A model generated the notes under the pieces. That model did no database searches, was not told the DNA's origin, and saw only the letters and a program-made list of their open reading frames with translations. The position numbers and the translations under genes are program-made. From Pseudomonadota bacterium (GTDB lineage Bacteria; Pseudomonadota; Gammaproteobacteria; JBCCGL01), in contig JBCCGL010000007.1 in the NCBI GenBank assembly GCA_039029275.1, forward strand, positions 213,428 to 277,427: DNA of 64,000 nt, given 5' to 3'. Below, one piece after another: positions 2,504 through 54,499 of the stretch. Every line of letters starts with the position of its first letter. Position 1 is the first letter of the stretch.

Positions 2504-3796
2504 TTGAATCCTCCTGTTCTCAAATTTGTTGAAAACCCCCGGATTGCGGTTGTCGGACTCGGTTACGTGGGCTTGCCGTTAGCGATTGAGTTTGCGAAGC
2601 AATTTGAGACGATAGGATTTGATACAAATCCGCGCAGAATCGAGGCTTTACAAACGGGCGTCGACACGACAAACGAAGTGGATCGGGAAGACCTGCGAAG
2701 TGCGCAAAATATTGTTTTTGCCAGCAATCCAGAAGCCTTGTCGGGTTGCGATGCGTTCATTGTCACAGTACCCACCCCGATCGACAGGCACAAAAACCCC
2801 GATTTGACAGCCCTGCGCTCAGCGAGCGAACTGGTGGGTTCTTACCTGCAACCCAATTGCGTGGTTGTGTACGAATCAACGGTTTACCCCGGCGCCACCG
2901 AACAGGTCTGCGTGCCACTACTCGAACGCCATTCGGGTTTAACAATGAACGTGGACTTTGCGGTCGGATATAGCCCGGAACGCATTAATCCTGGGGATCC
3001 AGGCAGAAGAATAAGCCATATTCTCAAATTGACGTCTGGGTCCAGCGAACAGGCAGCGGACTATATTGACGATCTTTATGCATCGATCATTACCGCGGGC
3101 ACCTACAAGGTAAAATCGATTCAGACAGCTGAGGCGGCCAAGGTTATTGAAAACACCCAGCGTGATGTCAACATCGCATTGATCAATGAGTTGGCGTTGA
3201 TATTTGAGAAACTGGGTTTAGACACCCACGAAGTGCTACAAGCCGCCGAAACCAAGTGGAATTTTCTCAAATTCAAACCAGGGCTTGTCGGCGGACACTG
3301 CATCGGCGTCGATCCTTACTACCTAACCCACAAAGCGCAGGAAATTGGCTACCACCCCCGCGTGATTCTGGCGGGACGGGAAATCAATGACGCCATGGGT
3401 AAACACGTCGCGCATGAGGTTATAAAACGGATGACAAAGAAACGTATTCCGATTGCCGATTCGCGGGTCTTGGTGATGGGGTTTGCGTTCAAGGAAAACT
3501 GTCCCGATATTCGAAACACCCGCGTCATCGACATTGTCGATGAAATCAGCTCGTACGATGTGGCAGTCGATGTTTACGACCCTTGCGTAGACCCAGGAGA
3601 TGCGCAAATCGAATATGGGCTTAAGGTTATTGAGGAGTTGGCCGAGTCTGAGTATGACGCAATCGTCGTCGCTGTTGCGCATGATTCCTTTCGCTCAATG
3701 TCGGTCGAAGATGTCCTTCGCTATGGCAAATCGACGTGCGTACTGTACGACGTCAAAGGTCTGTACCCGAGAGAACAGGTAGACGGCCGACTTTAG
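2504..3796 (+). CDS. UDP-N-acetyl-D-glucosamine 6-dehydrogenase (TviB/WbpO-type nucleotide-sugar dehydrogenase)
   Basis: 430 aa. [14 protein letters not shown] Rossmann motif, [12 protein letters not shown] catalytic Cys motif. Overall strong resemblance to TviB/WbpO, compared from memory. Confidence 0.85.
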
Positions 3797-3837
3797 ACGA
3801 TACTTATGATAATAATGAATTTGGAAAACACAGCTTT

Positions 3838-4845
3838 ATGAAAATTCTTGTAACAGGAACCGCCGGTTTCATTGGTGCTGCGCTGGCGATTCGATTACTC
3901 GAACGCGGTGATGACGTCATCGGTATAGACAACCTCAACGATTATTATGACGTTGCCATCAAACACGCGCGGCTTAAGCGCGTGAACGCGTTTGATCGAT
4001 TCACTGAAATCAATGCAAACCTTGAAGACCGAAACACAATCGAAAAAGTATTTGCGGAGCACAAACCTGAGCGGGTGATCAATCTGGCAGCGCAGGCGGG
4101 TGTGCGATATTCCCTGACTAATCCCTACGCGTATATCGATTCAAACATTTTGGGCTTTATGAATCTGCTCGAGTGCTGCCGCCACAATGAAGTTGAGCAT
4201 CTGGTTTACGCATCGAGTAGCTCGGTTTACGGCGCTAACACTTCCATGCCGTTTTCAGTTCACAATAATGTTGATCACCCGGTCAGCCTTTACGCCGCCA
4301 GTAAGAAATCCAACGAGTTGATGGCGCACACGTATAGTCATTTGTTCAACATTCCGACAACCGGCTTGCGTTTTTTTACCGTGTACGGCCCCTGGGGGCG
4401 TCCGGACATGGCTTTGTTCAAATTTACCAAGAACATTCTTGAGGACAAGCCTATCGATGTTTTCAACTATGGAAACCATCGGCGCGATTTTACCTACATC
4501 GATGACATCGTCGAAGGCGTCATTCGCACGCTTGATAGCGTTGCGAAACCCAATCCGGACTGGAATGGCGACTCGCCCGACGCCGCCACCAGCAAGGCAC
4601 CCTACCGACTCTATAACATCGGAAATAACTCACCGATTGAACTCATGCACTACATTGAAGTTCTGGAAAATTGCCTTGGCAAAAAAGCGGAAAAGAACCT
4701 TCTGCCCATGCAGGCCGGTGATGTACCTGATACCTACGCAAACGTAGAAGATCTGGTTGTCGATGTCGGCTACCGGCCGACAACCACAGTAGAAACCGGG
4801 ATCGCTCATTTCGTCGAGTGGTATCGTGACTTCTACAACTGTTAG
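3838..4845 (+). CDS. NAD-dependent nucleotide-sugar 4-epimerase (WbpP/TviC-like, UDP-GlcNAcA/UDP-GlcA 4-epimerase family)
   Basis: [13 protein letters not shown] Rossmann, [14 protein letters not shown] catalytic motif. Start placed at ATG 3838 rather than the overlong ORF start at 3736. Confidence 0.8.
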
Positions 4846-9696: not shown

Positions 9697-9808
9697 TTTT
9701 GGTAAGAAACGGCGGTGTGTCGGATGAATATCACTGAGAGCGCTAAGTTTAATGCATTGTCGCCAGATCGCGAATTCGGAAACTGGGTGAAATTGTGTGC
9801 AGTTGCGA

Positions 9809-9837
9809 TTGACCCTGCCGATATCAGCCAGTAATAT
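9809..9837 (+). promoter_or_regulatory. Sigma-70 promoter for tRNA-Asn: TTGACC, 17-nt spacer, TAATAT, followed by a GCGCGC discriminator
   Basis: Read directly. The -10 ends 14 nt before tRNA nucleotide 1. Confidence 0.55.
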
Positions 9838-9851
9838 GCGCGCTTCCCAAT

Positions 9852-9927
9852 TCCCCGGTAGCTCAGTCGGTAGAGCGGGTGACTGTTAATCACTAGGTCG
9901 GCGGTTCGAGCCCGTCCCGGGGAGCCA
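9852..9927 (+). tRNA. tRNA-Asn (anticodon GTT)
   Basis: Cloverleaf folded by hand. Acceptor TCCCCGG/CCGGGGA, anticodon loop CTGTTAA, T-arm GGTTCGAGCCC, encoded CCA. Confidence 0.9.
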
Positions 9928-10101
9928 TATTTTGAGCCAGAACAGGTTAACCCAATACCTCAAATCTTTTGCTGGCAAATCCTAACGACGCTGCCGCCTG
10001 GGCTCCTCAACGTGTGAACGACTACTCGTACAGTTCGACATTAATCAGTACGAATGGCTGCCTGCGTGCTCAAAATTAGATGACTGATTTAGAGCGTTTA
10101 T

Positions 10102-11028
10102 TTATCTGTCTGATTGATGGAGAAGCTTTATTTCATCCACAAATGTTCTCACTAAGTTACTTTGCTTCTTAGTCTTGTTTGTAATAAGAACAATCTGATT
10201 ACTAAAAAAATAGCGATCTGGATCGACCGCTTTCATAAAGCCCTGAGTCACCCAGGTCTCGGCGAAATGTTCAGGTAAATAGCCAACAAATTGCCCAGAC
10301 AAAATTAAGTGAGTTACACCTTCATCGTGAACTGTTGTTGCGGTGGTTTTGCAAGGAGGTTTGGCTCCATGAAACTCTAAGTCGCGTGTGTATCCGTGTC
10401 CGACCAGCTCCGCACTCTCGAGCAGTTTCGGGATTTGACCACTGTCACATTCAAACAAAGGATTTTCTGAGCCGCAGTACAGGTAGATATCTTCGGTATA
10501 TAGAAGTTCATAATGCAACCCTCTGAGAGGATACCTCCGAATGCCAATACCCACGCTGTACTCTCCGTTAAGCACCGATAGTTCAACATTCTCGGGAGAG
10601 CGAACATGAATATTAATCTGAAAATTCCCATCTTTGGATTTAATTCTGGATATCGCTTCCGATAAGCGAAATCTACGATCACTGATTAACATATCGATGG
10701 TTGAAATAGATAAGGTACCCGAAAGTCCAGATTTGGCGTCGGCCACGCTGGCGACAAATGACTCACATTGTTGAAAAAGTGCAATCGACGCCTCATAGAT
10801 GATCCTTCCTTGCTCGGTGATTTGAAATCCCGCGCGCCCGCGCCTGCAAAGCTGCATATTGAGTCGGCCCTCCAGATCGGCTAAATGGCTACTGATAGTC
10901 GAGCGGCCGATATTCAATCTTGTCTCAGCGGCTGACAGCCCCCCGCACTCGACGATTGCCACAAACACCCTCAAGAGACGCAAATCGACGTCCTGAACCT
11001 GCATTTCGATGGCTACTCCAGTTTCCAC
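10102..11028 (-). CDS. LysR-family transcriptional regulator
   Basis: N-terminal HTH LRLLRVFVAIVECGGLSAAETRLNIGRSTIS plus substrate-binding domain. Divergent from the IDO-like gene. Confidence 0.9.
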   Translation of the reverse strand: METGVAIEMQVQDVDLRLLRVFVAIVECGGLSAAETRLNIGRSTISSHLADLEGRLNMQLCRRGRAGFQITEQGRIIYEASIALFQQCESFVASVADAKSGLSGTLSISTIDMLISDRRFRLSEAISRIKSKDGNFQINIHVRSPENVELSVLNGEYSVGIGIRRYPLRGLHYELLYTEDIYLYCGSENPLFECDSGQIPKLLESAELVGHGYTRDLEFHGAKPPCKTTATTVHDEGVTHLILSGQFVGYLPEHFAETWVTQGFMKAVDPDRYFFSNQIVLITNKTKKQSNLVRTFVDEIKLLHQSDR

Positions 11029-11160
11029 CTATTGTTTGATCAAATCGGAACAAAGTCCAACTAATTTGTATTTTTCGGCAAAAAATTGAAGCGTAAGATT
11101 CCCCATCTAGAGTTGGCCCTTACGTATTACCGCTGAAAATCAGCATTAAAAATTCAACCA

Positions 11161-12318
11161 ATGAGTGGTTCTTCCATGCAACAAAGCTGCTGGAATCCGG
11201 TAAATGACACCGGGTTTCTGATGAGCCCAGATCCTGTATTCGACTTATCAATTGTCGGATCAGGCCTGCCCCTGCTCGTCAGCACAACGCTTGAACATAT
11301 TGCCGATTCGCTGCCCGAGTTGATTAAGTCCGGAAATCTTCGCAACGTAATTGATGAGCTTGAAGCATATGACGTATCTGCGTTGCGCAATATCAGGGAC
11401 TTTCGGGTTGTTGAACGCGCTTTTCAGATATATGCGCATCTCGCTAACGCATACGTGTGGTGCGACGAAGAAAACCCCAAACACCATATTCCTGAGGGTG
11501 TTGCTGTTCCGTTAGTTGAGTTATCAAAAATGGTTGAGCGGCCGCCGATTTTGCCCTACGCCGCGACATCATTGTGTAATTTTCGGCGTAGAGATCCGCA
11601 CGATGATTTGGTCGCCGATAACCTCGAGTGCATCATTAAGTTCGTTGACATACCCGATGAATCCTGGTTCCACCTCATTCACGTGGAGATTGAAGCTCAT
11701 GCAGCCAACGCGTTGAAGGCTTGTGTCGAAGCCACGAGCGCGATCTCGAGCGATGACGCTCAAATGGTTAAGTCTGAACTCGCCACAATACCAGAAGCCT
11801 TCGGCAAGATGATGGCAACGTTCAAACGCATGGACGAACACTGCAGTCCTGAGGTCTATTTCCATACTTCGCGCCCCTACCGTTTTGGTTTTGATGACGT
11901 GGTCTACAGGGGTGTAGAGGACTTTAACGGACGACCACAAACATTTTGTGGTGAAACTGGTGAACAAAGTACGGTGGTTCCCGCCTTGAAGGCCTTTTTA
12001 GGCCTGCAGAATGAACAGCATGGACTAAGCGAACCCCTGGAAGTCGTGAAGCCTTACATGCCCTCTCCTCACCGACAACTTTTGGCAGGCATTGATAGCC
12101 AGAAAATTCGCAAGTACGTCGTGAACCAAAAAAGCCAATCACTAAAACAAATATACAACAATTGCCTTGAAGGCTTGTTCGAATTCAGAAGCCTCCATTT
12201 TAATATGCTTAAGGGACATGTGGCGTGCAAGGTAAAAAATCCAATCGGTCGGGGTGGCACGGATTTTATGCACTGGTTACAAAATCTCAGAAACGAAACG
12301 GCCGCGCAATACATATAG
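11161..12318 (+). CDS. Indoleamine 2,3-dioxygenase (IDO) family heme dioxygenase
   Basis: GETGEQSTV (cf. GGSAGQSS), KPYMPSPHRQLL (cf. RRYMPPAHRNFL), FRSLHFNML (proximal His), GRGGTDFMHWL (cf. GTGGTDLMNFL). Exact start uncertain. Confidence 0.7.
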   Translation: MSGSSMQQSCWNPVNDTGFLMSPDPVFDLSIVGSGLPLLVSTTLEHIADSLPELIKSGNLRNVIDELEAYDVSALRNIRDFRVVERAFQIYAHLANAYVWCDEENPKHHIPEGVAVPLVELSKMVERPPILPYAATSLCNFRRRDPHDDLVADNLECIIKFVDIPDESWFHLIHVEIEAHAANALKACVEATSAISSDDAQMVKSELATIPEAFGKMMATFKRMDEHCSPEVYFHTSRPYRFGFDDVVYRGVEDFNGRPQTFCGETGEQSTVVPALKAFLGLQNEQHGLSEPLEVVKPYMPSPHRQLLAGIDSQKIRKYVVNQKSQSLKQIYNNCLEGLFEFRSLHFNMLKGHVACKVKNPIGRGGTDFMHWLQNLRNETAAQYI

Positions 12319-12345
12319 TGCTATCGAATAACAAAAGGAATACCC

Positions 12346-13236
12346 ATGAAGCCTAGAATGATGGCGCACGGCGGCGCTTGGGATTGGGACGACGCTTTAG
12401 ACTTTGGGAAGCATCAGGGGTTAAAAATCGCGATACGGGCCGGCCAGAATATCCTCGACAACGGCGGCAGTGCACTTGACGCAGTTGAGAAAACCGTAAT
12501 TGCGTTAGAAGATAATCCTGTGTTCGATGCGGGGACCGGCGGACACCTCAACGAGGACGGAATCGTACAACTCGATGCACTTATTGTTGACGGCTCTAGA
12601 CATGATTTTGGTGCAGTTGCGGGTGTAACCAGTGTAAAAAACCCGGTAGCACTGGCTCGAAAAATACTGGAAGAGACGAATCAAGTATTCTTTGTCGGGC
12701 ACGGTGCAAATCAACAAGCCGGAAAACTTGGAATATCCCCTGTTGCGAATGAAACGCTCGTCACCCCTGAGATGCGCGAATACTTTTATGATCGTAGAAC
12801 CGATGGACCAAGCGATACTGTCGGTGCCATTGCCATCGACAAAGATGGCAATGTGGCCGCCGCAGCATCAACGAGTGGTTCCCCTTACAAGCCAGCCGGA
12901 CGAGTTGGAGACGCTCCATTTTACGGAGCAGGTGGTTACGCTGAGAATTATATTGGGGCAGCAGGAGCGACAGGCCATGGGGAAATGATTGCACGCACAC
13001 TCTTGTCCAAACACGCATGCGATCAAATCAGCAACGGCGCTTGTGCGATGCATGCGGCTCAGAAATCAATCGAGTATTTTGAGTTGTTGAATGGAAAGTC
13101 TATGTCTGCTCTGATCGTAATTGACAAAGACGGCAATCTCGGTGCGAGTCAAACCGCACCCAAGATGGCATTTGGTTGGGTTGATCTAAACGGCAATATT
13201 CACACAGCAATGACGTCGAGCGAACTCAGAAAATAA
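12346..13236 (+). CDS. Isoaspartyl peptidase / L-asparaginase family Ntn-hydrolase
   Basis: 296 aa. DTVGAIAIDKDGN nucleophile-Thr motif, GAGGYAENYIGAAGATGHGE. Good SD AAGGA before ATG. Confidence 0.8.
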   Translation: MKPRMMAHGGAWDWDDALDFGKHQGLKIAIRAGQNILDNGGSALDAVEKTVIALEDNPVFDAGTGGHLNEDGIVQLDALIVDGSRHDFGAVAGVTSVKNPVALARKILEETNQVFFVGHGANQQAGKLGISPVANETLVTPEMREYFYDRRTDGPSDTVGAIAIDKDGNVAAAASTSGSPYKPAGRVGDAPFYGAGGYAENYIGAAGATGHGEMIARTLLSKHACDQISNGACAMHAAQKSIEYFELLNGKSMSALIVIDKDGNLGASQTAPKMAFGWVDLNGNIHTAMTSSELRK

Positions 13237-13302
13237 AATCTGACAATATCGAAAAATCTTGAATCCAGAACCAACATTGATCGGAACTGTTTCAGGTAAT
13301 TC

Positions 13303-16300
13303 TTAAGCAGCCTGTTCCTCCCCTTGAACGTTTCTTAAATGTCGGAGTAAATGTTTAACAACTGCATAGTTTTCGTCGTACGCTCTTTTTTTGACATAAC
13401 CATATCCACGAACCTTCGCTGCGCTACTCGCCAGCTCGACTGCTACGTCGTAGTTATCGGGCCGAGTTTCTCTCAACAAAATTCCCAGAAGTATTTCATA
13501 CTCATCGATGATGAGTCTTTCCAACTTTCGATCCTCGCTGTAGCCAAAAATATCGAACTTTGTTCCGCGCAGAAATCTTAACCCGGCCAGAATCTTAAAA
13601 ACCGGAATCATCCATTGGCCAAACTCCCGTTTGGACGGTAAGCCGTCTGGATTATTGGAAGCCAGTATAGGCGGAGCCAAGTTGAATTTGACTTGGTAGT
13701 CTCCTTCAAACTTATCGGAGAGATCCGACCAAAATTCATCGCTCGAATAAAGTCGTGCGACTTCGTACTCATCTTTGTACGCAAGTACATGTACATAAGT
13801 CCTGGCAACTTCCTTTGATAGTGCAAAATCAGTTCGGCCCAAAGCTTCATCGATCGACTCGAACGCGCGCACTTGATTAATGTAACGTTCGGCCAATGCT
13901 GTGTTTTGATACTGCTTGAGATGACTGGCGTACTGATCGAGTAAACCCTCAAGCGAATCTTCGCTTTTCTGAGCTGGTGCAGGATTTAGCTCGATAGTCG
14001 ATGGGAGCGACGAGGGTGAGTGACTTGCTAACCTGCCCCAGTTAAATGCAGCGATGTTTTTCTCAATTGCTACGCCATTCAGCTCGATGGCAGCTGTCAA
14101 GGATTCTGATTTTATTGGCACGTATCCTGACTGATACGCATAGCCCAGCAAAAACAGGTTTGCGAACACAGAATCTCCGAAGAGCCGCGTCGCGATATCG
14201 GTCGCATCGATGAATGTGCAATTGTCTGATCTAGTTGCCTTTCGAATAATGTTTTGCATTCGCATGGCGGGAAATTCAAGATCAGGTGTTTGTGTGAACG
14301 AAGACGGCATCGAACGGTAACTGTTTATCACGGCGTTAGTGTTTTGAGGGTCGGTTTTTGCCAAGGTATCAAAGCTGGACGCGACGATAAGGTCACCACC
14401 GATCACGACATTGGCTTCGCCCGCCGGAATGCGCACGGTATGAATGTCATTTTGAGAAACCGCGATACGAATATGACTGACCACTGCGCCGTATTTTTGC
14501 GCTAATCCCGCCATGTCCAGAACTGATATTCCTCTCTCCTCAATATGCGAGGCCATGCCGATGATCGCACCGATTGTGACGATACCTGTTCCTCCTACGC
14601 CTGTGACGACAATGTTGTACGGCATGTCAAGTGACGGTTTTATGGGTTCGGGCAGTGACTTGAATTCCGGGCTTTCCGTCATGGCCTGCTTCACTTTCAG
14701 TTTGCCGCCAACAACACTGACAAAACTCGGACAAAATCCTTTGTTGCACATAAAATCCTTATTACACGCGGACTGATCAATCGCGCGTTTGCGCCCAAAG
14801 GGTGTTTCAACCGGAATGATTGAAAGGCAATTTGATTTTTCTCCGCAATCACCGCATCCTTCACACACAGCCTTGTTGATAAACAAGCGTTTTTTCGGTT
14901 CTGGCATGAGGCCGCGTTTACGGCGTCGGCGCTTTTCTGTCGCGCAGGTTTGATCGTAGATGATGACCGAAACACCAGTGCTTTTACGCAGCGTGCGTTG
15001 CAAGGCATCAAGCTCGTCGCGATGATGCACCGTGACACCAGCGGCAAAATTTGCCTGGTGCGTGTACTTTTCAGGTTCGTCGCTGACCACCTTTAGCATG
15101 CGAACACCCTCGCCATATAGCTGATGAGTGATTTGCTCGACACTCAGTTGTCCGTCGATAGGCTGTCCGCCTGTCATTGCGACCGCGTCGTTGTAGAGCA
15201 ACTTGTAAGTCACATTCACGTCTGCAGCGACTGCTGCGCGAATCGCAAGCAAGCCGGAATGAAAGTACGTGCCATCTCCCAGATTCACAAATACATGTTC
15301 AGTTTCAGTAAAAGGAGATTGACCAATCCAGGCAACGCCCTCGCCGCCCATTTGTGAAAACGTTTCGGTTCGGCGATCCATCCAGATCGCCATATAGTGG
15401 CAGCCAATTCCGGCTAGTGCGCGGCTGCCTTCAGGCACTTTGGTGGATGTGTTATGCGGGCAACCCGAACAAAAATGAGGGACCCGCGCAATGGGTGACA
15501 CCGCCTGTTCCAACGCTTTTTCTTTCTCTTCAAGAAATGACAGACGTTCCTTCACCGCGTCACTGTCATAAAAAGGTTTTATTCGGCGAGCGATAACCCG
15601 TGCGACTTGTGCAGGCGTTAATTCACCGGTTGAAGGCAAAATCCATTCACCTGCCTCGTCAAATTTACCGACCACACGCGGCCTGACTTCCTCACGCCAG
15701 TTGTAGAGCTGTTCCTTAAGCTGGTTTTCGATAACTGCGCGCTTTTCTTCAACCACAATAATTTCTTCAAGACCTTCGGCGAACTCGCGAATTCCCTCTC
15801 GCTCAAGCGGCCAACTCATCCCTACTTTTAAAACCCGCAAGCCGATTTGTTGTGCGGTTTGTTTGTCGATGTGCAAATCGTCAAGTGCCTGCATCACGTC
15901 GAGATAGGACTTGCCGGTACTGACAATGCCAACGCGTGGCTTTTCGCTGTCGAGCGTAATGCGATTAAGCGTGTTGGCGCGCGCAAATGCCAATGCGGCG
16001 TACACCTTGTATTGCTGCAGGCGACGCTCCTGCACCAGCGGGGGATCGGGCCAACGTGCGTGCAAGCCGCCCGCGGGCATGTCGAAGTCCTGAGGCATGA
16101 CGATTGAGACCCGACTGGGGTCCAGGTCGGCAGAAATTGACGAATCGACAGTTTCGGCAATCGTTTTGAATCCAACCCAGCAACCGCTGAACCGCGACAA
16201 GGCCCAACCGATGAGTCCGAAATCCAGTATTTCCTGAACGCCAGATGGGTTAAGTACAGGCATTTGTGCGTCCATAAACGCGTATTCGCTTTGATGCGCC

Positions 16301-16761
16301 AGCGTTGAGGATTTGCAGGTATGGTCGTCCCCGGCAATTGCCAGGACACCTCCGAATTGGGATGTTCCTGCAGAATTGGCGTGTTTAAACACGTCGCCAC
16401 TGCGATCTACCCCGGGCCCTTTGCCGTACCACATTCCGAAAACACCGTCGTAATTAGCGCCATCGAACAGGTTAACTTGCTGCGAGCCCCATACTGCAGT
16501 TGCACCGAGGTCTTCGTTAACGCCGGGCTGAAAGTGTATATGGTGTTCTTTGAGGTAATCGCGCGCTTTCCACAGCGCCATGTCAAAACCGCCCAACGGC
16601 GATCCGCGATAACCTGATATAAACGCTGCGGTGTTCAATCCTGCCGCTAAATCGCGCTGGCGCTGCAGCATGGGGAGTTTGACCAACGCCTGGGTGCCGG
16701 TCAGATAGGCTCGGCCGGTATTAAGCGTGTATTTATCGTCGAGGGCTACTGATCGATTCAT
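13303..16761 (-). CDS. Indolepyruvate:ferredoxin oxidoreductase family protein (fused alpha/beta, 1152 aa)
   Basis: Characteristic N-terminus MNRSVALDDKYTLNTGRAYLTGTQALVKLPMLQR. TPP and 4Fe-4S Cys-motif regions (CEGCGDCGEKSNC). Confidence 0.9.
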   Translation of the reverse strand: MNRSVALDDKYTLNTGRAYLTGTQALVKLPMLQRQRDLAAGLNTAAFISGYRGSPLGGFDMALWKARDYLKEHHIHFQPGVNEDLGATAVWGSQQVNLFDGANYDGVFGMWYGKGPGVDRSGDVFKHANSAGTSQFGGVLAIAGDDHTCKSSTLAHQSEYAFMDAQMPVLNPSGVQEILDFGLIGWALSRFSGCWVGFKTIAETVDSSISADLDPSRVSIVMPQDFDMPAGGLHARWPDPPLVQERRLQQYKVYAALAFARANTLNRITLDSEKPRVGIVSTGKSYLDVMQALDDLHIDKQTAQQIGLRVLKVGMSWPLEREGIREFAEGLEEIIVVEEKRAVIENQLKEQLYNWREEVRPRVVGKFDEAGEWILPSTGELTPAQVARVIARRIKPFYDSDAVKERLSFLEEKEKALEQAVSPIARVPHFCSGCPHNTSTKVPEGSRALAGIGCHYMAIWMDRRTETFSQMGGEGVAWIGQSPFTETEHVFVNLGDGTYFHSGLLAIRAAVAADVNVTYKLLYNDAVAMTGGQPIDGQLSVEQITHQLYGEGVRMLKVVSDEPEKYTHQANFAAGVTVHHRDELDALQRTLRKSTGVSVIIYDQTCATEKRRRRKRGLMPEPKKRLFINKAVCEGCGDCGEKSNCLSIIPVETPFGRKRAIDQSACNKDFMCNKGFCPSFVSVVGGKLKVKQAMTESPEFKSLPEPIKPSLDMPYNIVVTGVGGTGIVTIGAIIGMASHIEERGISVLDMAGLAQKYGAVVSHIRIAVSQNDIHTVRIPAGEANVVIGGDLIVASSFDTLAKTDPQNTNAVINSYRSMPSSFTQTPDLEFPAMRMQNIIRKATRSDNCTFIDATDIATRLFGDSVFANLFLLGYAYQSGYVPIKSESLTAAIELNGVAIEKNIAAFNWGRLASHSPSSLPSTIELNPAPAQKSEDSLEGLLDQYASHLKQYQNTALAERYINQVRAFESIDEALGRTDFALSKEVARTYVHVLAYKDEYEVARLYSSDEFWSDLSDKFEGDYQVKFNLAPPILASNNPDGLPSKREFGQWMIPVFKILAGLRFLRGTKFDIFGYSEDRKLERLIIDEYEILLGILLRETRPDNYDVAVELASSAAKVRGYGYVKKRAYDENYAVVKHLLRHLRNVQGEEQAA

Positions 16762-39579: not shown

Positions 39580-40341
39580 TTACGCCTCGTACTTTCGAAT
39601 ACCAAGTTTTTGCATCGTAGCAAAGCAGATAAACATAGGCACGATTGTGAAGTAGCGCTTCCACAACCGGCGAGGTTCTGTAATAAGTCGAAACAACCAC
39701 TCCAAGCCAGAACGTCGCAAAAACTTCGGCGCCTGACGGGTTCGACCCGCGTGAAAATCAAATGCTGCCCCCACTCCAACGAGCACCGGTGCGTGTAATT
39801 TGGCTCGATGTTCGGCCATCCATCGCTCCTGCTTTGGCGTGCTCAATCCGACCCAAACAATATCGGCTTCAGACGCATTAATTTGATTGGCAATTTCTTC
39901 GCTCTCCTGATCGGTGAGTGCACGAAACGGCGGTGATATGGCGCCTACAATCTGGATTTTGGGAAAACGCCGTTTTAGATTTGCCTGCAGCGCTGCCAGA
40001 GACTCCTCTGATGCCCCATAGAGAAAGTGGCGATATCCGTGGTCGTGCCCGTGATTGATCACTTCGAGCATGAGGTCAGGACCGTATACGCGGTCAGCCT
40101 GTTTGTGGCCTTCGCTGCGCATAAACCAAACCAATGGCATACCATCAGGAGTAACCAGGCCAGCATGATTGTGGATTTGCTTCAGCGCATCGTCAAACTG
40201 GCTTTCAATTATGCCGTGTACCGACGTCACACAAACGTACCGAGCAACCCGTTTGCCAATCCACGAGTGAATGGTGCCGACTGCTTCTGGCATATTGGTC
40301 GCACTTTGTCGTACGCCAAGAATATTGCAACGTTCAACCAT
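39580..40341 (-). CDS. WecB/TagA/CpsF-family glycosyltransferase (start taken at MVERCNILG)
   Basis: LLYGASEE, RFPKIQIVG, IVWVGLSTPKQE. Confidence 0.8.
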   Translation of the reverse strand: MVERCNILGVRQSATNMPEAVGTIHSWIGKRVARYVCVTSVHGIIESQFDDALKQIHNHAGLVTPDGMPLVWFMRSEGHKQADRVYGPDLMLEVINHGHDHGYRHFLYGASEESLAALQANLKRRFPKIQIVGAISPPFRALTDQESEEIANQINASEADIVWVGLSTPKQERWMAEHRAKLHAPVLVGVGAAFDFHAGRTRQAPKFLRRSGLEWLFRLITEPRRLWKRYFTIVPMFICFATMQKLGIRKYEA

Positions 40342-41620
40342 TCTGGTATTGCCCCGGGGTGCTTTGGTTTGTTGTGTTTCGCTGCCCCGACTTACGCCGA
40401 TCAGCGAGCAGCACAACAAGGTCAGCTTGATCTTCGGCTAACCTTTCAGACGCTGCGACCAACGCCAGTATTAATAAAAATGTCGTGGGGTTTGGGATAA
40501 TCAGTACCGGATTAAATAGTCCGCCAATAACACCCGAAACGAGCATTCCCATCAAAAAGGCATCCTTCGATTTGATAGCAATGATCAATGCGTAGAAAAG
40601 GATGATCAGCATCAATCCCAGTCCGATAATGCCAGTTGTTAATGCCGCTTCCACGTAACTGTTGTGGGCATGTCCAGCGAACGCAAAATGCTCTAAAAGA
40701 AAATATCGACTGGAAAAATATCCGACACCGAAAAAAGGGCTGTCTGATATAAATTCACTGGATTTTATCCATAGTGGAACTCGATTGTTTAAAGTCCAAA
40801 AGTCACGCGGCAAATTCTCGATGATGTCACCTGACAATAGGAAAACGACGAAAACCAACACGCATGCGACTGTGCAAAACCACAGTGCTACTCGCGTAGT
40901 GATTCCGCCAGAAAAATACATCACAACTGCTACAACGAGGGGGCACATCCCGATGAGGTTACGTCCGTGGGTCAAGAGAAGTATGTAGAAAAACACACCA
41001 CCGAGTATTAATTTGAGTGCAATGGGTGCACGTAATACGGTAGTAATAATTATTGCAATCAACATCAGCTCACCGGTTTCAAGAGGGTGAGAATAGCCGA
41101 GGTAAAAGCGACCTGGGCGACCGCTCCATTCGGATGCCTCGGTAAATCTAAACGGCGATCCTCCTTCTATCGCAAAGTTGGCGAATATCAATGCCACCAC
41201 CGCCGCAAAGACGCCTAACGCAATTACACGCAGAAAGCTGTTGGAGTCCAAAATGTCGAGCCCCTTCATGTAAACCACAAGCGCAACTGCGATGAAGTAA
41301 CATAGAATGAGCTCACCTCCTTTGCCGAACGACAATACGGGGTTTGTCGACCATAAAAATGTGAGCATCGCCCAGACGGCATACGCCAGTACTACAAACC
41401 ATCCTGCCGACTTAATCGCAACATAGCACTGGTTCACTATGATCGCTATGACGATAATTCCGGATGCGGCCAACAAAAGTCCGATTTCAATCACACGACT
41501 AATGCTGGACTCGCTGGTCATTACATTGCCAGTTTCCACAACGGGCATAAAAGCCATCACAACCAGAAAAATGATACAGGCAGGCAGATACAGGGTTGAC
41601 ATGTGGCCAGGACGATTCAC
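40334..41620 (-). CDS. O-antigen ligase / Wzy-like polytopic membrane protein
   Basis: 428 aa, 10 or more TM helices, Wzy_C-like loop. Confidence 0.7.
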   Translation of the reverse strand: MNRPGHMSTLYLPACIIFLVVMAFMPVVETGNVMTSESSISRVIEIGLLLAASGIIVIAIIVNQCYVAIKSAGWFVVLAYAVWAMLTFLWSTNPVLSFGKGGELILCYFIAVALVVYMKGLDILDSNSFLRVIALGVFAAVVALIFANFAIEGGSPFRFTEASEWSGRPGRFYLGYSHPLETGELMLIAIIITTVLRAPIALKLILGGVFFYILLLTHGRNLIGMCPLVVAVVMYFSGGITTRVALWFCTVACVLVFVVFLLSGDIIENLPRDFWTLNNRVPLWIKSSEFISDSPFFGVGYFSSRYFLLEHFAFAGHAHNSYVEAALTTGIIGLGLMLIILFYALIIAIKSKDAFLMGMLVSGVIGGLFNPVLIIPNPTTFLLILALVAASERLAEDQADLVVLLADRRKSGQRNTTNQSTPGQYQNG

Positions 41621-41622
41621 TG

Positions 41623-42822
41623 TCAGTGCCTTATGTGATTGCCGGCGCGGGTTTGTTGCGACGTTTGCATTGCCTGTTCGTAGATATCCATCAGCAGAGG
41701 ATAGTTTGATTCCTCCGTGTAGTTATCAAGATAAGTATTACGCGCATTGTTTCGCATTGTTGCGAGCTGTCGGTGCGATGTGCTGTATATTTCGGCTATT
41801 TTATCAGCCAGGTCGCCGGAATTCGTTGGCTCGAAAAATAGTCCGTTTACGCCATTGTTAACCAGCTCTGAAATACCTCCGATATTGGAGGCGACAACAG
41901 GTGTTCCTTTTGAAAATGACTCTATCACCGTACGACCAAACGGCTCATACCATCGTGATGGGATGACCAGGCATTTAGCCTCCCCTACTATCTTCATGGT
42001 TTGCTCAAGTGGTAATTGACCCAACCATTCGATGTTACAGCTTAAAGACGCTTGACGCGCAAGATCTGCCATAGGTCCGTCGCCAATTATCTTCAATTGA
42101 TAGTTAGAACCGAGTATTTCCCATGCACTCAGTAACGTTTCTAAATCCTTTTCTTCAGATAGACGACCAACAAACACCGCGTAGTTTCCTGACCCTTGTC
42201 CTTTGTCAATTTCACCTGATAGAAAATTCGGTTTAACAAACATACGTTGCGGGTCAAATCCAGCTTCGATATATTTTTTCCGAGTGAACTCGCTGATAGC
42301 AAAAAATGCGCTCACCTTTTTCTGCCAGGTACGAACGGAACGGTGAACCGCATTATGGAGCGTGAGGATCGTGGACGCGGCCAAGTCACCCCGGTAACAT
42401 TTGTGAACGATTGCGGGATACGCAATACGTTTATTAATGCACTTCTCGCAGATGCTTCCCTGCCTCAATAACGTTGCGCCGGGACAGATTAAGCGATAAT
42501 TTCTTAGCGACTGAACGACAGCGACGCCTTTCTTCTGCGCCGCAAAGTAAACAGACGGTGAAAGCAGCGGGAATATATTGGTGCAGTGAATGACATCCGG
42601 CTTGAAATCGCTAATCTTCTTCTCAACACGGCGATAAGAATTGCGACTCCAGAAAGTATCGATTGCTAATGCAATTTTCCCTTGATCGTTTACCTGATCG
42701 TTGTGCACGGTTAGTGTTTCGACAGCGTGGCCATGATTCCTGAGCATCGAAATTTCGTCATGAAACGACAGGTCTTCACCACCGCGAAGTTGGTAATAAT
42801 TGTGGCAGGCGAGTACGCGCAT
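41623..42822 (-). CDS. Glycosyltransferase family 4
   Basis: GT4 EX7E-type C-terminal region. Start ATG shares one nucleotide with the upstream stop. Confidence 0.85.
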   Translation of the reverse strand: MRVLACHNYYQLRGGEDLSFHDEISMLRNHGHAVETLTVHNDQVNDQGKIALAIDTFWSRNSYRRVEKKISDFKPDVIHCTNIFPLLSPSVYFAAQKKGVAVVQSLRNYRLICPGATLLRQGSICEKCINKRIAYPAIVHKCYRGDLAASTILTLHNAVHRSVRTWQKKVSAFFAISEFTRKKYIEAGFDPQRMFVKPNFLSGEIDKGQGSGNYAVFVGRLSEEKDLETLLSAWEILGSNYQLKIIGDGPMADLARQASLSCNIEWLGQLPLEQTMKIVGEAKCLVIPSRWYEPFGRTVIESFSKGTPVVASNIGGISELVNNGVNGLFFEPTNSGDLADKIAEIYSTSHRQLATMRNNARNTYLDNYTEESNYPLLMDIYEQAMQTSQQTRAGNHIRH

Positions 42823-43463
42823 TACACCACAATTTTTCTGCAATAAAATGCTTCGGCGTAACCGCTCTTTGCGTTGCATTCGATGCCGCGAATGCGCATC
42901 AAACTTTCAAATGTCTCACGAGAAAACCAATTTTTCTCGAATTGACTTGTAAAGCACTGGGTCAGATAGTCCACCTTATTTTTAACTGTCTCAGGTTCCA
43001 GTCGAAAATAAAGGTTGGGCTGACCCAGATCGCCTTCATACTTTGGAATTTCATATTCCAGAATCAGATTGTCACGAAACGTATTCCAGCATACCTCACC
43101 TAACAAGCGATGGTCCTGATGCCGATCTTCAAGCCTATGTGTGATGACCAGATCCGGATTGAATTCTCCTCGTAATTCACTGAATAGAGCTTTTATTTCT
43201 TTGTGTGAGTCAAACAAAAGGGTGTCGGTAAATGATTCGCATCTGACATTTGCATGTTTGGCGGTGGCGAGAAATTTTTGGGCAGACGCTTCGGCTTCTT
43301 TAAGCCTGACCCCGTTTGCACTCATGACTAACCAGTAAACTCTGATATTGGGGTTTGAGTCAATAAGTTGTAGAAGCGCACCACCGCAGCCGATTTCGAT
43401 GTCGTCGGCGTGTGCTCCCACCAGTAGAACGCTGCCAATTGACGAAAGATCTGGATGATACAT
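42822..43463 (-). CDS. PIG-L / LmbE-family N-acetylglucosaminyl deacetylase
   Basis: LLVGAHADDIEIGCGG. Confidence 0.8.
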   Translation of the reverse strand: MYHPDLSSIGSVLLVGAHADDIEIGCGGALLQLIDSNPNIRVYWLVMSANGVRLKEAEASAQKFLATAKHANVRCESFTDTLLFDSHKEIKALFSELRGEFNPDLVITHRLEDRHQDHRLLGEVCWNTFRDNLILEYEIPKYEGDLGQPNLYFRLEPETVKNKVDYLTQCFTSQFEKNWFSRETFESLMRIRGIECNAKSGYAEAFYCRKIVV

Positions 43464-43490
43464 TGAGCGGCCCGGTTTTCGATCTAAGTC

Positions 43491-44210
43491 TTAGTCGGAG
43501 AAAACCCAGGGAGCTTCACCGCTGGCATACATTTCATCAAGCATCGCTTTCTCCTTATAAGTGTCCATGCAGCCCCAAAAGCCCGGGTAATGATACGCGT
43601 GAAGTTTTTCTGCATTGATTAAACGGTCAAAGGGTTCTTCAACGAGCTCTTCACCTTCGTTGATATGCTCGAAAATATCGTAGTCGAATATAAAAAAACC
43701 GCCATTCATCCAAACTCCGGCCTGATCGACAGGATATATTTTCTGCACTTGCCCGCTATCCTTGGACTCAATTACGTGGAAGCTGTGGTACTTGGGTGAG
43801 ACAGCAACAAACGTAGCAGTGCCCTCACTGGCTTTGTGAAATTCATACATTTTGCTAAGTCGCACACTCGACAAACCGTCGGCGTAATTCGCAAAAAATG
43901 TCTCCCCTGGTTCAAAGCACTCACGGGACGCTAGAAGTCGCTGGCCGAGGTTTGCGTCTATCCCCGTGTCACGAACGCTGATTGTCCAGTCATTTGGAAC
44001 GCAATCGGGTCGCTTGCTGAAGTAATCCCTGATGATGTCGGCTTTCCAGCCCACGCACAAAATGAATTCAGTGTGTCCAAAGTACGCGTAGTAATGCATG
44101 ATGTGGACGACCATTGGTCTGTCGCCAACGGGAACCATCGGTTTTGGCAAAGGGTTAGTGTCGCCGCCAAGACGCATTCCCATACCACCGCAAAAAAGTA
44201 ATACTTTCAC
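43491..44210 (-). CDS. rfbF: Glucose-1-phosphate cytidylyltransferase
   Basis: 239 aa, FCGGMGMRLG. Confidence 0.88.
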   Translation of the reverse strand: MKVLLFCGGMGMRLGGDTNPLPKPMVPVGDRPMVVHIMHYYAYFGHTEFILCVGWKADIIRDYFSKRPDCVPNDWTISVRDTGIDANLGQRLLASRECFEPGETFFANYADGLSSVRLSKMYEFHKASEGTATFVAVSPKYHSFHVIESKDSGQVQKIYPVDQAGVWMNGGFFIFDYDIFEHINEGEELVEEPFDRLINAEKLHAYHYPGFWGCMDTYKEKAMLDEMYASGEAPWVFSD

Positions 44211-44252
44211 CTACGAGCCTCCAAGCAAACCTGGCGTACGAAAATGATCATT

Positions 44253-45530
44253 TTAAAAAACATCAAGGTGTGGGATCGGTACTACAAATTTACATCCCCA
44301 TTCACGAACGTAGGCGAGCTGATCAGTGATTTCTTCCCGTAAGTTCCAGGGCAAAATAAGTATGTAGTCAGGCCTGGTTTTTGCTATCACATCCGGAGAG
44401 TGAATAGGGATATGGCTGCCAGGCATGAACTTGCCCTGTTTGAAATCGCTGCGATCAACCGTGTAGTCAAGAAAGTCCTCACGAATTCCACAATAGTTCA
44501 ACAGAGTACCGCCCTTACCGGGGGCACCGTAACCGACTACTGATTCGCCGGCACGTTTCTTATCGATCAGAAATTCGAGCAAGGCACGTTTTATTTCCTT
44601 TGCTCTATCGCTGAAGGCCTGATAAGTCTGCATCTGATCAAAACCGTCAGCGATCTCCTGTGATTTAACGCGATCGACAGAATTAGATACCTTGTGTGTC
44701 TGACAGTCCGCGTGTTTAACGTAGTAACGCAGTGAGCCACCGTGTGTTGGAAGCTCATCAACATCGAAAACAATCAGGTCGTGGGCCTCGAATATTTTTT
44801 GAGCACTGAGTAGTGAGTAGTACGAGAAATGTTCTTGATAAAATTGATCAAACTGATTGCCTTTGATCGTTTTTGCCACATGCGGTATTTCAACTGTCAG
44901 GACACCGTCATCCGCTAACGCTATTTTCATCCCCGCGACAAAATCATTGATGTCAGGGACATGACCAAAGACATTGTTTGCGATCAGCAAATTTGCTTTT
45001 CGCCCTTCTTCGGTCAAATCTCTTGCGCATTCGCTGCCAAAAAATCTGGCAATTGTCTCAATGCCTTTACTTCGCGCGTACTCCGCAATGTTTTCTGCAG
45101 GTTCAATACCTAAGGCCGGAATTCCACGTGCTTTAACGTATTGAAGGAGGTAACCGTCATTACTTGCGATTTCGATTACCTGGCTATTTGCGTCAATTCC
45201 AAACCGTTCAACCATATTACCTACGTAATCGTCAACATGTTTTAACCATGATTCAGAGAATGAAGAGAAATATGCGTAGTGGCTGTAGATTTCTTCACCG
45301 CTGACGAAATCCAGTACTTGAACAAGGTAACAGGAGCTGCACACATAGGCTTTGACCGGGTACGTGGGCTCCATAGAATCGAGCGCTTCACGCGCAACGT
45401 AGCTTTCGCACAATGGCTGCATGCCAAGATCGACGACTTGCTGTGTTAATTCTGACTCGCAAAACCGGCAGAAGTGTTTGCTAGCGGTCGCTCCGGCGAC
45501 TGAGGTTTTCATTGCGGCTTGGGCACTCAT
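44253..45530 (-). CDS. NDP-hexose C-methyltransferase (TylC3/TcaB9-like: N-terminal Cys4 zinc ribbon, SAM-MT, C-methyltransferase C-domain)
   Basis: CRFCESE...CSSCYLVQ Cys pairs. IASNDGYLL SAM motif. Confidence 0.75.
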   Translation of the reverse strand: MSAQAAMKTSVAGATASKHFCRFCESELTQQVVDLGMQPLCESYVAREALDSMEPTYPVKAYVCSSCYLVQVLDFVSGEEIYSHYAYFSSFSESWLKHVDDYVGNMVERFGIDANSQVIEIASNDGYLLQYVKARGIPALGIEPAENIAEYARSKGIETIARFFGSECARDLTEEGRKANLLIANNVFGHVPDINDFVAGMKIALADDGVLTVEIPHVAKTIKGNQFDQFYQEHFSYYSLLSAQKIFEAHDLIVFDVDELPTHGGSLRYYVKHADCQTHKVSNSVDRVKSQEIADGFDQMQTYQAFSDRAKEIKRALLEFLIDKKRAGESVVGYGAPGKGGTLLNYCGIREDFLDYTVDRSDFKQGKFMPGSHIPIHSPDVIAKTRPDYILILPWNLREEITDQLAYVREWGCKFVVPIPHLDVF

Positions 45531-45580
45531 ATTAATTCACGCATCTAGTGGAATATTGAAAAAAATCACGGCACCTGATA

Positions 45581-46927
45581 TCAGCATGCCTGCTCAATAC
45601 CTTGAATCATTTCGAGCAAATTTTTTTCTCTAAGCGTATTCGCTGCTCGCCTGAGGGTACCCACGCTTAATCCACTGCGCTGTGCGATGCTCAGCAAATC
45701 CTGTTCGCCATCGGCACAACTGAGCATCCATAAAACAGCTTTGTGAAATGCGTCGCGTCCTGCATCTCGCGAATACCCTTCATAAAGGTTGTGCGGCGCA
45801 AGAAAAGGCTCCGCGCCATTCAAAACGGTTTTGAATACCGCGTTTGCGTCTACCGCATGTAACATTGCGAGCACCTTGTCGTAGGAATCTTGCAGACTCT
45901 GAGGGCAGACGATGTCCATGTTGTCAGCCGAGGTGTGGTATTGCGGATACTCCCCGTACGGCGTCCGCATCACGCAACCGACAGGCAGATTGATACCTGG
46001 CGAGCAATACTGGCGCTCGTCGTGCCCCCAGGGCACAAATGGGCGAATGTCGTGATCGTCACCGCTTTGTTGCAAAATCAAATCTGCAGCCCTATCGAAC
46101 TCGCTTGTTGCATGCCGTGATTGCTTATAGTGTATATGACCACTGTCGCCTAAAAGGCCGATCGAATATCCGCCTTTGATCTTGTTGAGTTGATTTTCGT
46201 TTTTCGCAAGCCATGTAATCGAGCCGATTGTTGCGGGCACAAATACGAACCGAAAACTGTAGTGGCATTTTGACTGCAAAAGCGTTTTAGCCAAGAACGC
46301 CGATACTGCAATTCCTGAAACATTGTCGTTGGCAAGCGCTGGATGACAAATATGCGTGGAGACAATAATTTCCTCATTCGACGCGCCCGGTACAAGCACT
46401 TCGCCATAACTAAGAGAACCGTCGAAATGATCAGCATCAACAAATACCTTGAATCGCTCCCCGCTTCGGGCTTTCATATCGCGGTATTGCTGTCGCTTAA
46501 CACAAAAACCCCACGACGGCGTGAAGTACGATGTTCGATAAGGAACAGCATCGTCAAATTCATGAACTGTATATAAATGCGGCTCCAGTTCTTCCCAGGT
46601 GAAATATGCATCGACCGCCGTGCTGTAACTCATTAAATGCAAATTGGAGTTTTCGATATCGACAATCTTGCGACCGGTTGAGTCCGCGATATACGCAGCG
46701 TTGACTCGCCATTCTTTCGGCACAGTCCAGTCAAATACAGCCGTGCCAGTGGGAATTTCAAAAGTCTGGATTGGAACGTGCTCTCCAATCGCGTTTAGCG
46801 TCATCCGATTCCCATCGCCGGTGATACTGCGTGGAAGATCAAACAGTGTTTCCATGAACTCATAGATCGCGTCGCCTTCTACACTCGGTGAGGTTGCCGG
46901 ATGAACACTATGAGGTGAGTTTTTCAC
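45581..46927 (-). CDS. DUF4910 / COG4310 aminopeptidase-like (M28-like) domain protein with C-terminal winged-helix region
   Basis: 448 aa. Resembles the conserved unknown-function protein found in glycan clusters. Confidence 0.65.
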   Translation of the reverse strand: MKNSPHSVHPATSPSVEGDAIYEFMETLFDLPRSITGDGNRMTLNAIGEHVPIQTFEIPTGTAVFDWTVPKEWRVNAAYIADSTGRKIVDIENSNLHLMSYSTAVDAYFTWEELEPHLYTVHEFDDAVPYRTSYFTPSWGFCVKRQQYRDMKARSGERFKVFVDADHFDGSLSYGEVLVPGASNEEIIVSTHICHPALANDNVSGIAVSAFLAKTLLQSKCHYSFRFVFVPATIGSITWLAKNENQLNKIKGGYSIGLLGDSGHIHYKQSRHATSEFDRAADLILQQSGDDHDIRPFVPWGHDERQYCSPGINLPVGCVMRTPYGEYPQYHTSADNMDIVCPQSLQDSYDKVLAMLHAVDANAVFKTVLNGAEPFLAPHNLYEGYSRDAGRDAFHKAVLWMLSCADGEQDLLSIAQRSGLSVGTLRRAANTLREKNLLEMIQGIEQAC

Positions 46928-48234: not shown

Positions 48235-48256
48235 GATTAACTCGCTTTCAAGTTTT

Positions 48257-49408: not shown

Positions 49409-50351
49409 TCTTTGGCGACACTCGCGACACGATGTTGTTCAATCGAGTTTCCGCGATGAGCCACCACTTCTTGTATTGAAATAGGTAAACAATAAGCCAG
49501 AAAATACACTTAAGTTTCGTAGACGCGTCGTTCCCACTGTCCATTGCAACCGACAAGTAGCCGGAAAACTGCCGCAACAGGGGGGTATGTATAATTCGTT
49601 TCCGAATAGCGGAATTTTTTGACTCACGTGTAGCGCCTGAAATTGAACCGGAGTGAACACGCTGGCTGAACAGCATCTGTGGTAAATCCCAAAAGCGTCC
49701 ATGTACAGCCAACTCAGCCATCATTAACTTTTCTGACCCGTAGAACGATTGCATTAGTCCGGTTTTACCCAATGCTTCGGACTTGAAAACGCCGGAGCAG
49801 CGCACGCCCCACCCTGACGACAGCAACACATCGCCAAAACGTCGGGAAAAATAGTGTGACGACCCATCGCGTCTGTGCCGGATGTTGTCCTTCTCTTGAC
49901 CACCATCCGTGGGGTCAGGAAAGCCCTTAATCTCGTTACCGTACTCGTTAATCGTCATCGTGCGCGAGTGACAACAAACAACGCTCAAATCGTTCTCCAG
50001 AACCTCTACGCACCTTGCCACGAACTCCGGATCACATAGATCATCACAAGCGGCCCACTTAAAATACTTACCATTGGACAAGTGGAAAACACGCGAGAAA
50101 TTCCAGTTTGACCCTTTGTTTTGACTCTCCCTGACGTAACGTATTCTTTTGTCCTTCTCCGCGTATAATCGACAAATCTCAGCTGTTTGATCGGTCGATG
50201 CGTTATCCGAAATCACGATCTCGATGTTGTCGTAAGTCTGGGCGAGCAATGAGTCGAGCGACTCTGATAGAAACTCATCAGCGTTGTACACCGGTACCCC
50301 GATACTGACCAGCGGTTGTTGTGAATTGCTCTGATTCATTTCAGTCCGCAA
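49401..50351 (-). CDS. Glycosyltransferase family 2
   Basis: VSIGVPVYNADEFL...ISDNASTD. Confidence 0.85.
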   Translation of the reverse strand: MRTEMNQSNSQQPLVSIGVPVYNADEFLSESLDSLLAQTYDNIEIVISDNASTDQTAEICRLYAEKDKRIRYVRESQNKGSNWNFSRVFHLSNGKYFKWAACDDLCDPEFVARCVEVLENDLSVVCCHSRTMTINEYGNEIKGFPDPTDGGQEKDNIRHRRDGSSHYFSRRFGDVLLSSGWGVRCSGVFKSEALGKTGLMQSFYGSEKLMMAELAVHGRFWDLPQMLFSQRVHSGSISGATRESKNSAIRKRIIHTPLLRQFSGYLSVAMDSGNDASTKLKCIFWLIVYLFQYKKWWLIAETRLNNIVSRVSPKIA

Positions 50352-50354
50352 TCG

Positions 50355-54479: not shown

Positions 54480-54499
54480 TGGTCAATCTCTACAAACTG

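Follow-up and report, generated by a model that had tools for sequence, protein, structure and literature searches.

We describe here a pair of adjacent genes from a Pseudomonadota bacterium (assembly GCA_039029275.1, contig JBCCGL010000007.1), found in a stretch of 64,000 nucleotides that was analyzed at its full length (positions 213,428 to 277,427 of the forward strand; hereafter the window, in which position 1 is the first letter). The first gene (11161 to 12318, + strand) encodes a heme dioxygenase of the indoleamine 2,3-dioxygenase (IDO) family, and the second (12346 to 13236, + strand) encodes the precursor of an N-terminal nucleophile (Ntn) amidohydrolase of the Asparaginase_2 family (Asp2); a LysR-type transcriptional regulator gene (lysR; 10102 to 11028, − strand) is transcribed divergently from them. 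The pair is a real, conserved, and undescribed combination of two known families: the literature that we searched contains no link of indoleamine or kynurenine to isoaspartyl, asparaginase, or Ntn hydrolases. Our leading reading, a tentative one, is that the pair is a catabolic cassette under LysR control that marine bacteria of one clade have inherited as a unit, and that the hydrolase is an N-formylkynurenine (NFK) formamidase.

Conservation of the gene pair

The first-pass annotation of this DNA had made its proposal depend on the two genes being found together in other genomes, and they are. From genomes and metagenomes we collected the surroundings of IDO relatives at 109 loci, built a neighbor-joining tree of the IDOs, and defined the clade of the window protein as those IDOs at least 48% identical to it, which yielded 25 distinct loci. 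An Asp2 gene lies immediately downstream of the IDO gene on the same strand in 14 of these 25, with spacers of 2 to 78 nt, and in none of ~70 loci from more distant IDO clades. All Asp2-linked IDOs sit inside the ≥48% clade, and linked and unlinked members are interspersed within it in the tree. Named hosts of the pair are Pikeienuella and Henriciella (both Alphaproteobacteria), an unclassified Pseudomonadota metagenome-assembled genome (MAG), and a Chloroflexota MAG. When Pfam families were counted without bias over three genes on each side of the 25 clade loci, Asp2 was the commonest neighbor (13 loci, plus L101, where open reading frame [ORF] picking had missed it), followed by LysR (9/25), MBL-fold (8), MarR (5), and MFS (4) families. 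With Asp2 ranking first among the neighbor families of these IDOs, chance falls far short of explaining the adjacency. Ten further IDO-Asp2 pairs are implied by IDO and Asp2 matches on contigs of exactly equal length.

The two proteins have also diverged in step. Across 15 pairs, pairwise distances among the IDOs correlate with those among the hydrolases (r = 0.74; Mantel p = 2e-4), so the pair has travelled together through >40% divergence, and this conserved pairing argues for functional coupling. A comparison of IDOs with and without the hydrolase returned no specificity-determining positions at a 75% threshold, and the adjacency thus marks no separate IDO subtype. The clade itself is small: a search of 1.84 billion representatives clustered at 50% identity gave 2163 IDO family matches at E ≤ 1e-3 and 278 when the limit was set at E ≤ 1e-30. 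Among the matches listed, P0065 is the only representative with as much as 48% identity to the window's IDO.

The dioxygenase

The IDO gene encodes 385 aa as listed, but translation probably begins at the ATG at 11176, which gives 380 aa and agrees with the start used in the public annotation and by all relatives. The public record calls its product a hypothetical protein, and no NCBIfam model matches it; the clade as a whole likewise has no NCBIfam model and bears the hypothetical protein label in public records. The earlier assignment to the IDO family is nonetheless well founded, since the protein scores 238.4 bits against PF01231 (gathering score, 26; E = 1.6e-70; residues 40 to 356), and its closest solved relatives are human IDO1 (E ~1e-39) and IDO2. 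An AlphaFold2 model built from 26 relatives has a mean predicted local distance difference test (pLDDT) score of 89.5 and a predicted template-modeling (pTM) score of 0.90, with pLDDT <50 for JK loop residues 356 to 367. By Foldseek, the model superimposes on IDO1 with a TM score of 0.88 to 0.89 and a root mean square deviation (RMSD) of ~2 Å, and the top 50 matches in the PDB are all IDO1 or IDO2 (TM, 0.85 to 0.89; RMSD, 2.0 to 4.1 Å).

We aligned the window protein with human IDO1 and 91 clade relatives to compare individual residues. The heme-ligating proximal histidine that the first-pass annotation had reported is present: window His346 (codon 12196 to 12198) aligns with IDO1 His346, and the position is histidine in 90/91 clade members. 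The carboxylate-binding arginine of IDO1 (R231) corresponds to window R238 and is invariant in the clade, and the equivalents of IDO1 Y126, F163, and R343 are conserved. By profile, fold, and heme ligand, the product of the first gene is a true IDO-fold protein and a member of this family of heme dioxygenases. It shares with human IDO1 and IDO2 their Pfam family, two-domain all-helical fold, proximal histidine, and carboxylate-binding arginine, and it has a glycine-rich JK loop motif in which the threonine equivalent to IDO1 Thr379 is replaced, but is only 26 to 30% identical to IDO1, and its JK loop is ~20 residues shorter. The clade also differs from IDO1 on the distal side of the heme, where the positions of Ser167 and Phe164 are both histidine throughout (91/91 at the Ser167 position); the window enzyme differs from both human enzymes in its operon pairing with an Ntn hydrolase.

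The glycine-rich loop had been described as GTGGTD-like. A loop of this kind is indeed present, and the clade consensus is GTGGT, but the window protein reads GRGGTD (residues 363 to 368), with arginine where 91/91 relatives have threonine. This is one of several departures from the clade norm. Among columns that are ≥97% conserved over 92 clade sequences (the window protein and 91 relatives), the window IDO deviates at eight, compared with three in the next worst member and a median of 0. Three of these sites are predicted, from where they fall in IDO1, to belong to the wall of the substrate pocket or to the JK loop: R241 (IDO1 L234; leucine in 91/91 relatives), E268 (IDO1 G265; alanine in 90/91), and R364 (IDO1 T379, in the GTGGT loop; threonine in 91/91). 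The remaining five are S237 (IDO1 L230; leucine in 89/91), N284 (IDO1 Q281; histidine in 91/91), H287 (IDO1 G284; glycine in 91/91), V296 (IDO1 M295; methionine in 91/91), and V273 (IDO1 F270; isoleucine in 90/91); in one listing of the eight, residue 159 stands in place of V273. The partner hydrolase has no comparable excess of outlier sites within its own family.

These eight sites lower our confidence that the window copy behaves like the rest of its clade, and the enzyme may be altered or inactive, with an activity or specificity off the clade norm. The dioxygenase in this genome might accordingly be decaying or repurposed, in which case the cassette would no longer do here what it does elsewhere in the clade. 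We judge this unlikely; it is orthogonal to the other readings considered below. In its favor are the number of deviations relative to all other members, the non-conservative replacement by R241, E268, and R364 of residues that are 99 to 100% invariant elsewhere, and the ordinary conservation of the adjoining hydrolase. Against it, the ORF is intact and full length, the predicted fold is confident except in the JK loop, and the proximal histidine, R238, and distal histidine are all kept. The Arg/Glu/Arg trio, moreover, would seem to resemble a compensated change more than random decay, which suggests a compensated shift in specificity over relaxed selection.

The partner hydrolase

The hydrolase gene follows the IDO gene after exactly 27 nt (12319 to 12345, + strand; read directly from the sequence), and a Shine-Dalgarno sequence, AAGGA, lies at 12335 to 12339, 6 nt 5′ of the hydrolase ATG. 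The three ORFs, their coordinates, the co-orientation of the pair, the length of its spacer, and the divergent lysR were all given in the first-pass annotation and are confirmed here. A consensus scan showed no terminator-like site between the two genes, and the scan of 10950 to 13400 for sigma-70 promoters and terminators gave nothing above shuffle expectation.

The hydrolase (296 aa) is named isoaspartyl peptidase/L-asparaginase in the public record, and its proposed membership of the asparaginase-type Ntn hydrolases is borne out by its match to PF01112 (249.5 bits; threshold, 27; E = 5.7e-74; residues 4 to 283) and by the alignment of its threonine nucleophile and HGG loop. Among solved structures, human ASRGL1 is the closest (E = 4e-52), with glycosylasparaginases (E ~1e-39) and Escherichia coli EcAIII next. 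The nucleophile Thr158 (SD/TVGAIAID; codon 12817 to 12819) aligns with ASRGL1 Thr168, and autocleavage is predicted just N-terminal of it. Both Thr158 and the HGG loop (H8-G9-G10) are kept in all clade members examined. The oxyanion pair T209-G210 aligns with ASRGL1 T219-G220, T176 is also present, and R186 and D189 of a GRVGD motif align with ASRGL1 R196 and D199, the anchor that in this family holds the alpha-carboxylate and alpha-amino groups of the L-aspartyl moiety.

With plant-type isoaspartyl peptidases/L-asparaginases such as EcAIII and ASRGL1, the hydrolase thus has in common its family, autoprocessing threonine, oxyanion residues, Arg/Asp anchor, and HGG. It is set apart from them by a loop characteristic of its clade, HGGAWDWDD, which places two tryptophans beside the HGG, by a shorter linker before the nucleophile, and by its frequent operon position behind an IDO gene. 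It also scores only 149.9 bits against NF007589, the NCBIfam equivalog for the E. coli IaaA-type beta-aspartyl peptidase, for which the cutoff is 567; it therefore belongs to the IaaA superfamily but is not an IaaA ortholog. Glycosylasparaginases (Flavobacterium; human AGA) are of the same Ntn family and hydrolyze N4-substituted asparagine with a bulky leaving group, but the window hydrolase bears no sign of a sugar substrate and has no signal peptide. The AWDW loop may lie approximately where glycosylasparaginase sets Trp11 and Phe13 against the bulky leaving group, a correspondence that we treat as a lead only.

Regulation

The regulator combines HTH_1 (PF00126) and LysR_substrate (PF03466) domains. 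Its ORF as listed begins with a GTG at 11028, and the public annotation begins at M9 (~11004) to give 300 aa. A divergent LysR gene accompanies the IDO-hydrolase pair in at least seven loci, with orthologs adjoining the IDO gene in L005, L019, L021, L096, L102, and L107; more distant LysR proteins occupy the −2 position in L003 and L030, and the LysR count of 9/25 given above refers to occurrence within three genes. We aligned six lysR-IDO spacers from loci whose IDO proteins are 48 to 67% identical and found 17 invariant columns, which delimit an operator-like motif at 11030 to 11086 in the window. In the relatives, the motif reads AGTTTGAT-N5-CGGAAT ... TATTTATCAAAC; the window has GTTTGAT (11034 to 11040), CGGAAC (11046 to 11051), and a degenerate second half-site, TATTTTTCGGCA (11069 to 11080). 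The conserved motif is a candidate binding site for LysR. At other loci, the place of LysR is taken by MarR together with a response regulator, by IclR, or by an MFS gene in divergent orientation.

Candidate pathway and its alternatives

Bacterial IDOs are poorly understood and are seldom found together with the rest of the kynurenine pathway. Known formamidases are the zinc-dependent cyclase-type KynB and the alpha/beta-hydrolase AFMID, and the regulator KynR is of the Lrp/AsnC type. A survey of bacterial IDOs by Yuasa, Ushigoe, and Ball (2011) is cited in PMC4191572, KynB is described as a binuclear-zinc cyclase-type formamidase (PMC4243253), and none of the KEGG bacteria examined in PMC12451956 had both ido and kynU. 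The absence of kynureninase stated in the first-pass annotation holds within the window, where kynureninase, KynB-type cyclase (PF04199), and TDO (tryptophan 2,3-dioxygenase) were not found among the ORFs; nor are kynureninase, KynB, or TDO among the 25 commonest neighbor families (of 97 matched) around the 25 clade loci. In having a ring-opening heme dioxygenase clustered with an amidohydrolase under a dedicated transcription factor, the cassette resembles the kynA-kynB-kynU system of Pseudomonas aeruginosa. It differs in that the dioxygenase is an IDO and not a TDO, the hydrolase uses an Ntn threonine nucleophile in place of the zinc of KynB, the regulator is LysR-type, and kynureninase is absent from the window and the common neighbor families. 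The cassette is therefore not of the kynA-kynB-kynU type, though it may work like the first two steps of that pathway.

We infer the substrates of both enzymes, the order of their steps, and the LysR effector. That the hydrolase takes over the formamidase step was the first inference of the first-pass annotation, and we rank it first; its second, a different indole or amide substrate for the pair, may also be right. In the reading that we favor, the dioxygenase most likely cleaves the pyrrole ring of an indole amino acid, L-tryptophan or one much like it, to yield NFK, and the hydrolase, an autoprocessing threonine-nucleophile amidohydrolase, would act next and deformylate NFK to kynurenine and formate. 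The conserved Arg/Asp aspartyl anchor could hold the amino-acid end of NFK, and the cassette would constitute an IDO-based, KynB-independent entry to kynurenine metabolism. A dioxygenase followed by an amidohydrolase is the simplest chemistry for the pair, because the N-formyl group is the only amide made by 2,3-cleavage of an indole; in all pathways known to us, the N-formyl product is then handled by an amidohydrolase. A possible reason for retention of the aspartyl anchor is that NFK has the same L-2-amino-4-oxobutanoate skeleton as asparagine.

Several observations fit this proposal. No known formamidase occurs in the window or among the common neighbor families, and the facultative presence of the hydrolase is as expected if its step can also be carried by other enzymes or proceed through slow spontaneous hydrolysis. 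The operon is occasionally extended, in each case at one locus, by genes for an SNF-family Na+ transporter, a class-V pyridoxal phosphate (PLP) enzyme, RidA, an M20 amidohydrolase, an M81 protein, or a DUF2891 protein. The transporter, the PLP enzyme, and RidA with M20 fit amino-acid catabolism, although these extensions would suit a cassette that yields kynurenine as well as one that yields aspartate, and do not tell the two apart.

Other observations weigh against the proposal. The literature that we searched contains no Asparaginase_2-family member acting on a formamide, and structural reasoning suggests that in the canonical binding mode the threonine would face the ketone carbon of NFK and not its formyl carbon. 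Judged by its residues, the hydrolase is probably an active beta-aspartyl-type amidohydrolase, and its catalytic and anchoring set is equally conserved in IDO-linked copies and in clade members with no IDO neighbor (e.g., P0128 in L103). The two genes also occur apart: the hydrolase is missing from about half of the IDO clade, including the sister loci L098, L105, and L106, it stands without IDO in L103, and, when contigs of ≥8 kb are matched by length to those of the IDO hits, 38 hydrolase relatives have no IDO on the contig compared with 20 that do (roughly two-thirds without). The possibly altered state of the window dioxygenase counts in the same direction.

The two enzymes may instead be co-regulated from a shared LysR-controlled promoter and chemically independent, with the IDO degrading tryptophan and the hydrolase acting as an ordinary L-asparaginase or isoaspartyl dipeptidase that releases aspartate and ammonia, as part of the scavenging of amino acids and peptides by a marine heterotroph. 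The canonical beta-aspartyl active site, identical in linked and unlinked hydrolases, the solitary occurrences of each gene, and variable flanks rich in peptidases, aminotransferases, RidA, D-amino-acid genes, and amino-acid transporters all agree with such an arrangement. It offers no reason, however, for the pair to stay adjacent at 2 to 78 nt across phyla and >40% divergence, and co-divergence of a fixed pair is rare for unrelated catabolic genes; we regard this explanation as somewhat doubtful.

Alternatively, both enzymes may act on one molecule that is not NFK. This could be an unrecognized indole substrate with a beta-aspartyl or N4-substituted-asparagine linkage, or one in which ring opening creates a beta-aspartyl anilide, and the two enzymes, in either order, would free L-aspartate. 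Such a substrate would reconcile the intact aspartyl pocket with true pathway coupling; the HGGAWDWDD loop, with its two tryptophans beside HGG, is a lead in this direction, and aspartate-like products could be substrates of the class-V PLP enzyme whose gene follows that of the hydrolase in L104. The searched literature yields no such metabolite, however, and we know of no indole/beta-aspartyl conjugate. The clade IDO consensus also retains the arginine and the GTGGT motif with which IDO1 holds tryptophan by its free amino-acid end. This argues for a plain amino acid as substrate, and we consider a conjugate quite improbable. Separately, we rejected on chemical grounds the idea of a C-C hydrolase that would convert kynurenine to aspartate and an aniline, for which the aryl leaving group is too poor.

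To return to NFK deformylation, its strongest form, in which the hydrolase represents a third, non-orthologous kind of NFK formamidase and, together with a His-distal IDO, makes up an unrecognized cassette for tryptophan degradation in marine Alphaproteobacteria, other Pseudomonadota, and Chloroflexota, is possible but somewhat unlikely.

Variation among related loci

We looked for a recurrent third partner and rejected the idea, as each candidate is confined to a single locus; only IclR and two MBL/ODP genes recur, and they do so within one Chloroflexota-like subclade. In this subclade, which comprises L002 (an Anaerolineae MAG), L004 (a Chloroflexota MAG), L104, and L106 and probably belongs to Chloroflexota, the gene order IclR, ODP/MBL-fold, MBL-fold, IDO is conserved (e.g., L104:4443-8206), and the MBL-fold proteins are similar to flavorubredoxin NO reductase in its di-iron domain. 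In L104 this order is extended by Asp2 and the class-V PLP enzyme, and L106 has DinB instead. The PLP gene of L104 (9169 to 10308, + strand) has a 4-nt overlap with the end of the hydrolase gene. Its product scores 75 bits as CsdA (cysteine desulfurase/sulfinate desulfinase) and 58 bits as kynureninase, and it matches PDB entry 1qz9 at E = 2e-13; the scores are weak and no better for kynureninase than for CsdA, and we make no call of kynureninase. If the enzyme were one, L104 would encode a complete non-canonical anthranilate pathway.

IS21-family transposase and IstB genes lie within a few kilobases of two cassettes (L096:6248-8631 and L101:14589-16552), which hints at horizontal mobility. 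In L003, a Pikeienuella MAG, the hydrolase at 3156 to 4017 is split over two reading frames (3156 to 3545 and 3553 to 4017), reflecting either a frameshifted pseudogene or an assembly error. L001 (a Kordiimonadaceae MAG) and the closely related metagenome contigs L016 and L017 carry an IDO ~60% identical to that of the window with no hydrolase, and have upstream of it a divergent gene for a PLP-dependent decarboxylase of the aromatic-amino-acid type (PF00282; e.g., L017:8135-9568, − strand). A separate marine IDO clade (L048 to L061; 38 to 39% identity) resides in a different, conserved, and uncharacterized context for a bacterial IDO, a cluster of genes for an Ldh_2-family dehydrogenase, an SDR protein, an arylmalonate-decarboxylase-like protein, an M55 D-aminopeptidase, a luciferase-like monooxygenase, and TauD.

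Other features of the window

A tRNA-Asn(GTT) gene (9852 to 9927, + strand) is separated by 174 nt from the 3′ end of lysR. Across this junction (9700 to 11500), G+C content falls from ~53% to 44 to 47%. A genomic island inserted at the tRNA is not supported, as no direct repeat of the tRNA end occurs within 12.7 kb. Convergent on the operon is a gene (13303 to 16761, − strand) for a fused 1152-aa protein of the indolepyruvate:ferredoxin oxidoreductase (IOR) family (NF009588; 1680 bits). A link between this gene and the cassette was rejected, since tblastn found no such gene beside other IDO loci, and the shared reference to indole is probably a meaningless coincidence. A locus at 53403 to 59306 encodes a Rieske ring-hydroxylating oxygenase alpha subunit, an RpiR regulator, a DAO/GCV_T fusion resembling dimethylglycine/sarcosine dehydrogenase, and a class-III aminotransferase, and is probably devoted to catabolism of a methylated amine or osmolyte. 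The region from 39580 to 52878 (− strand) is a long, co-oriented polysaccharide biosynthesis cluster (WecG, Wzy_C, GT1, GT2, a sugar C-methyltransferase, DUF4910, an aminotransferase, epimerases, and an initiating sugar transferase), and the rest of the window holds the housekeeping genes mnmA, uvrB, pheST, thrS, purB, lpxK, msbA, and comEC.

Implications for bacterial IDOs

The fixed partner gene provides the first testable biochemical context for this clade of IDOs, and the mutated copy in the window is a natural variant for asking which pocket residues matter. If the two genes are merely co-regulated, they constitute an ordinary amino-acid scavenging operon. If the partner splits an indole conjugate to free aspartate, a marine metabolite not yet known would be implied. 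If it is a formamidase, as we tentatively favor, a textbook step would have a further catalytic solution, and the asparaginase/Ntn family would gain an activity new to it.

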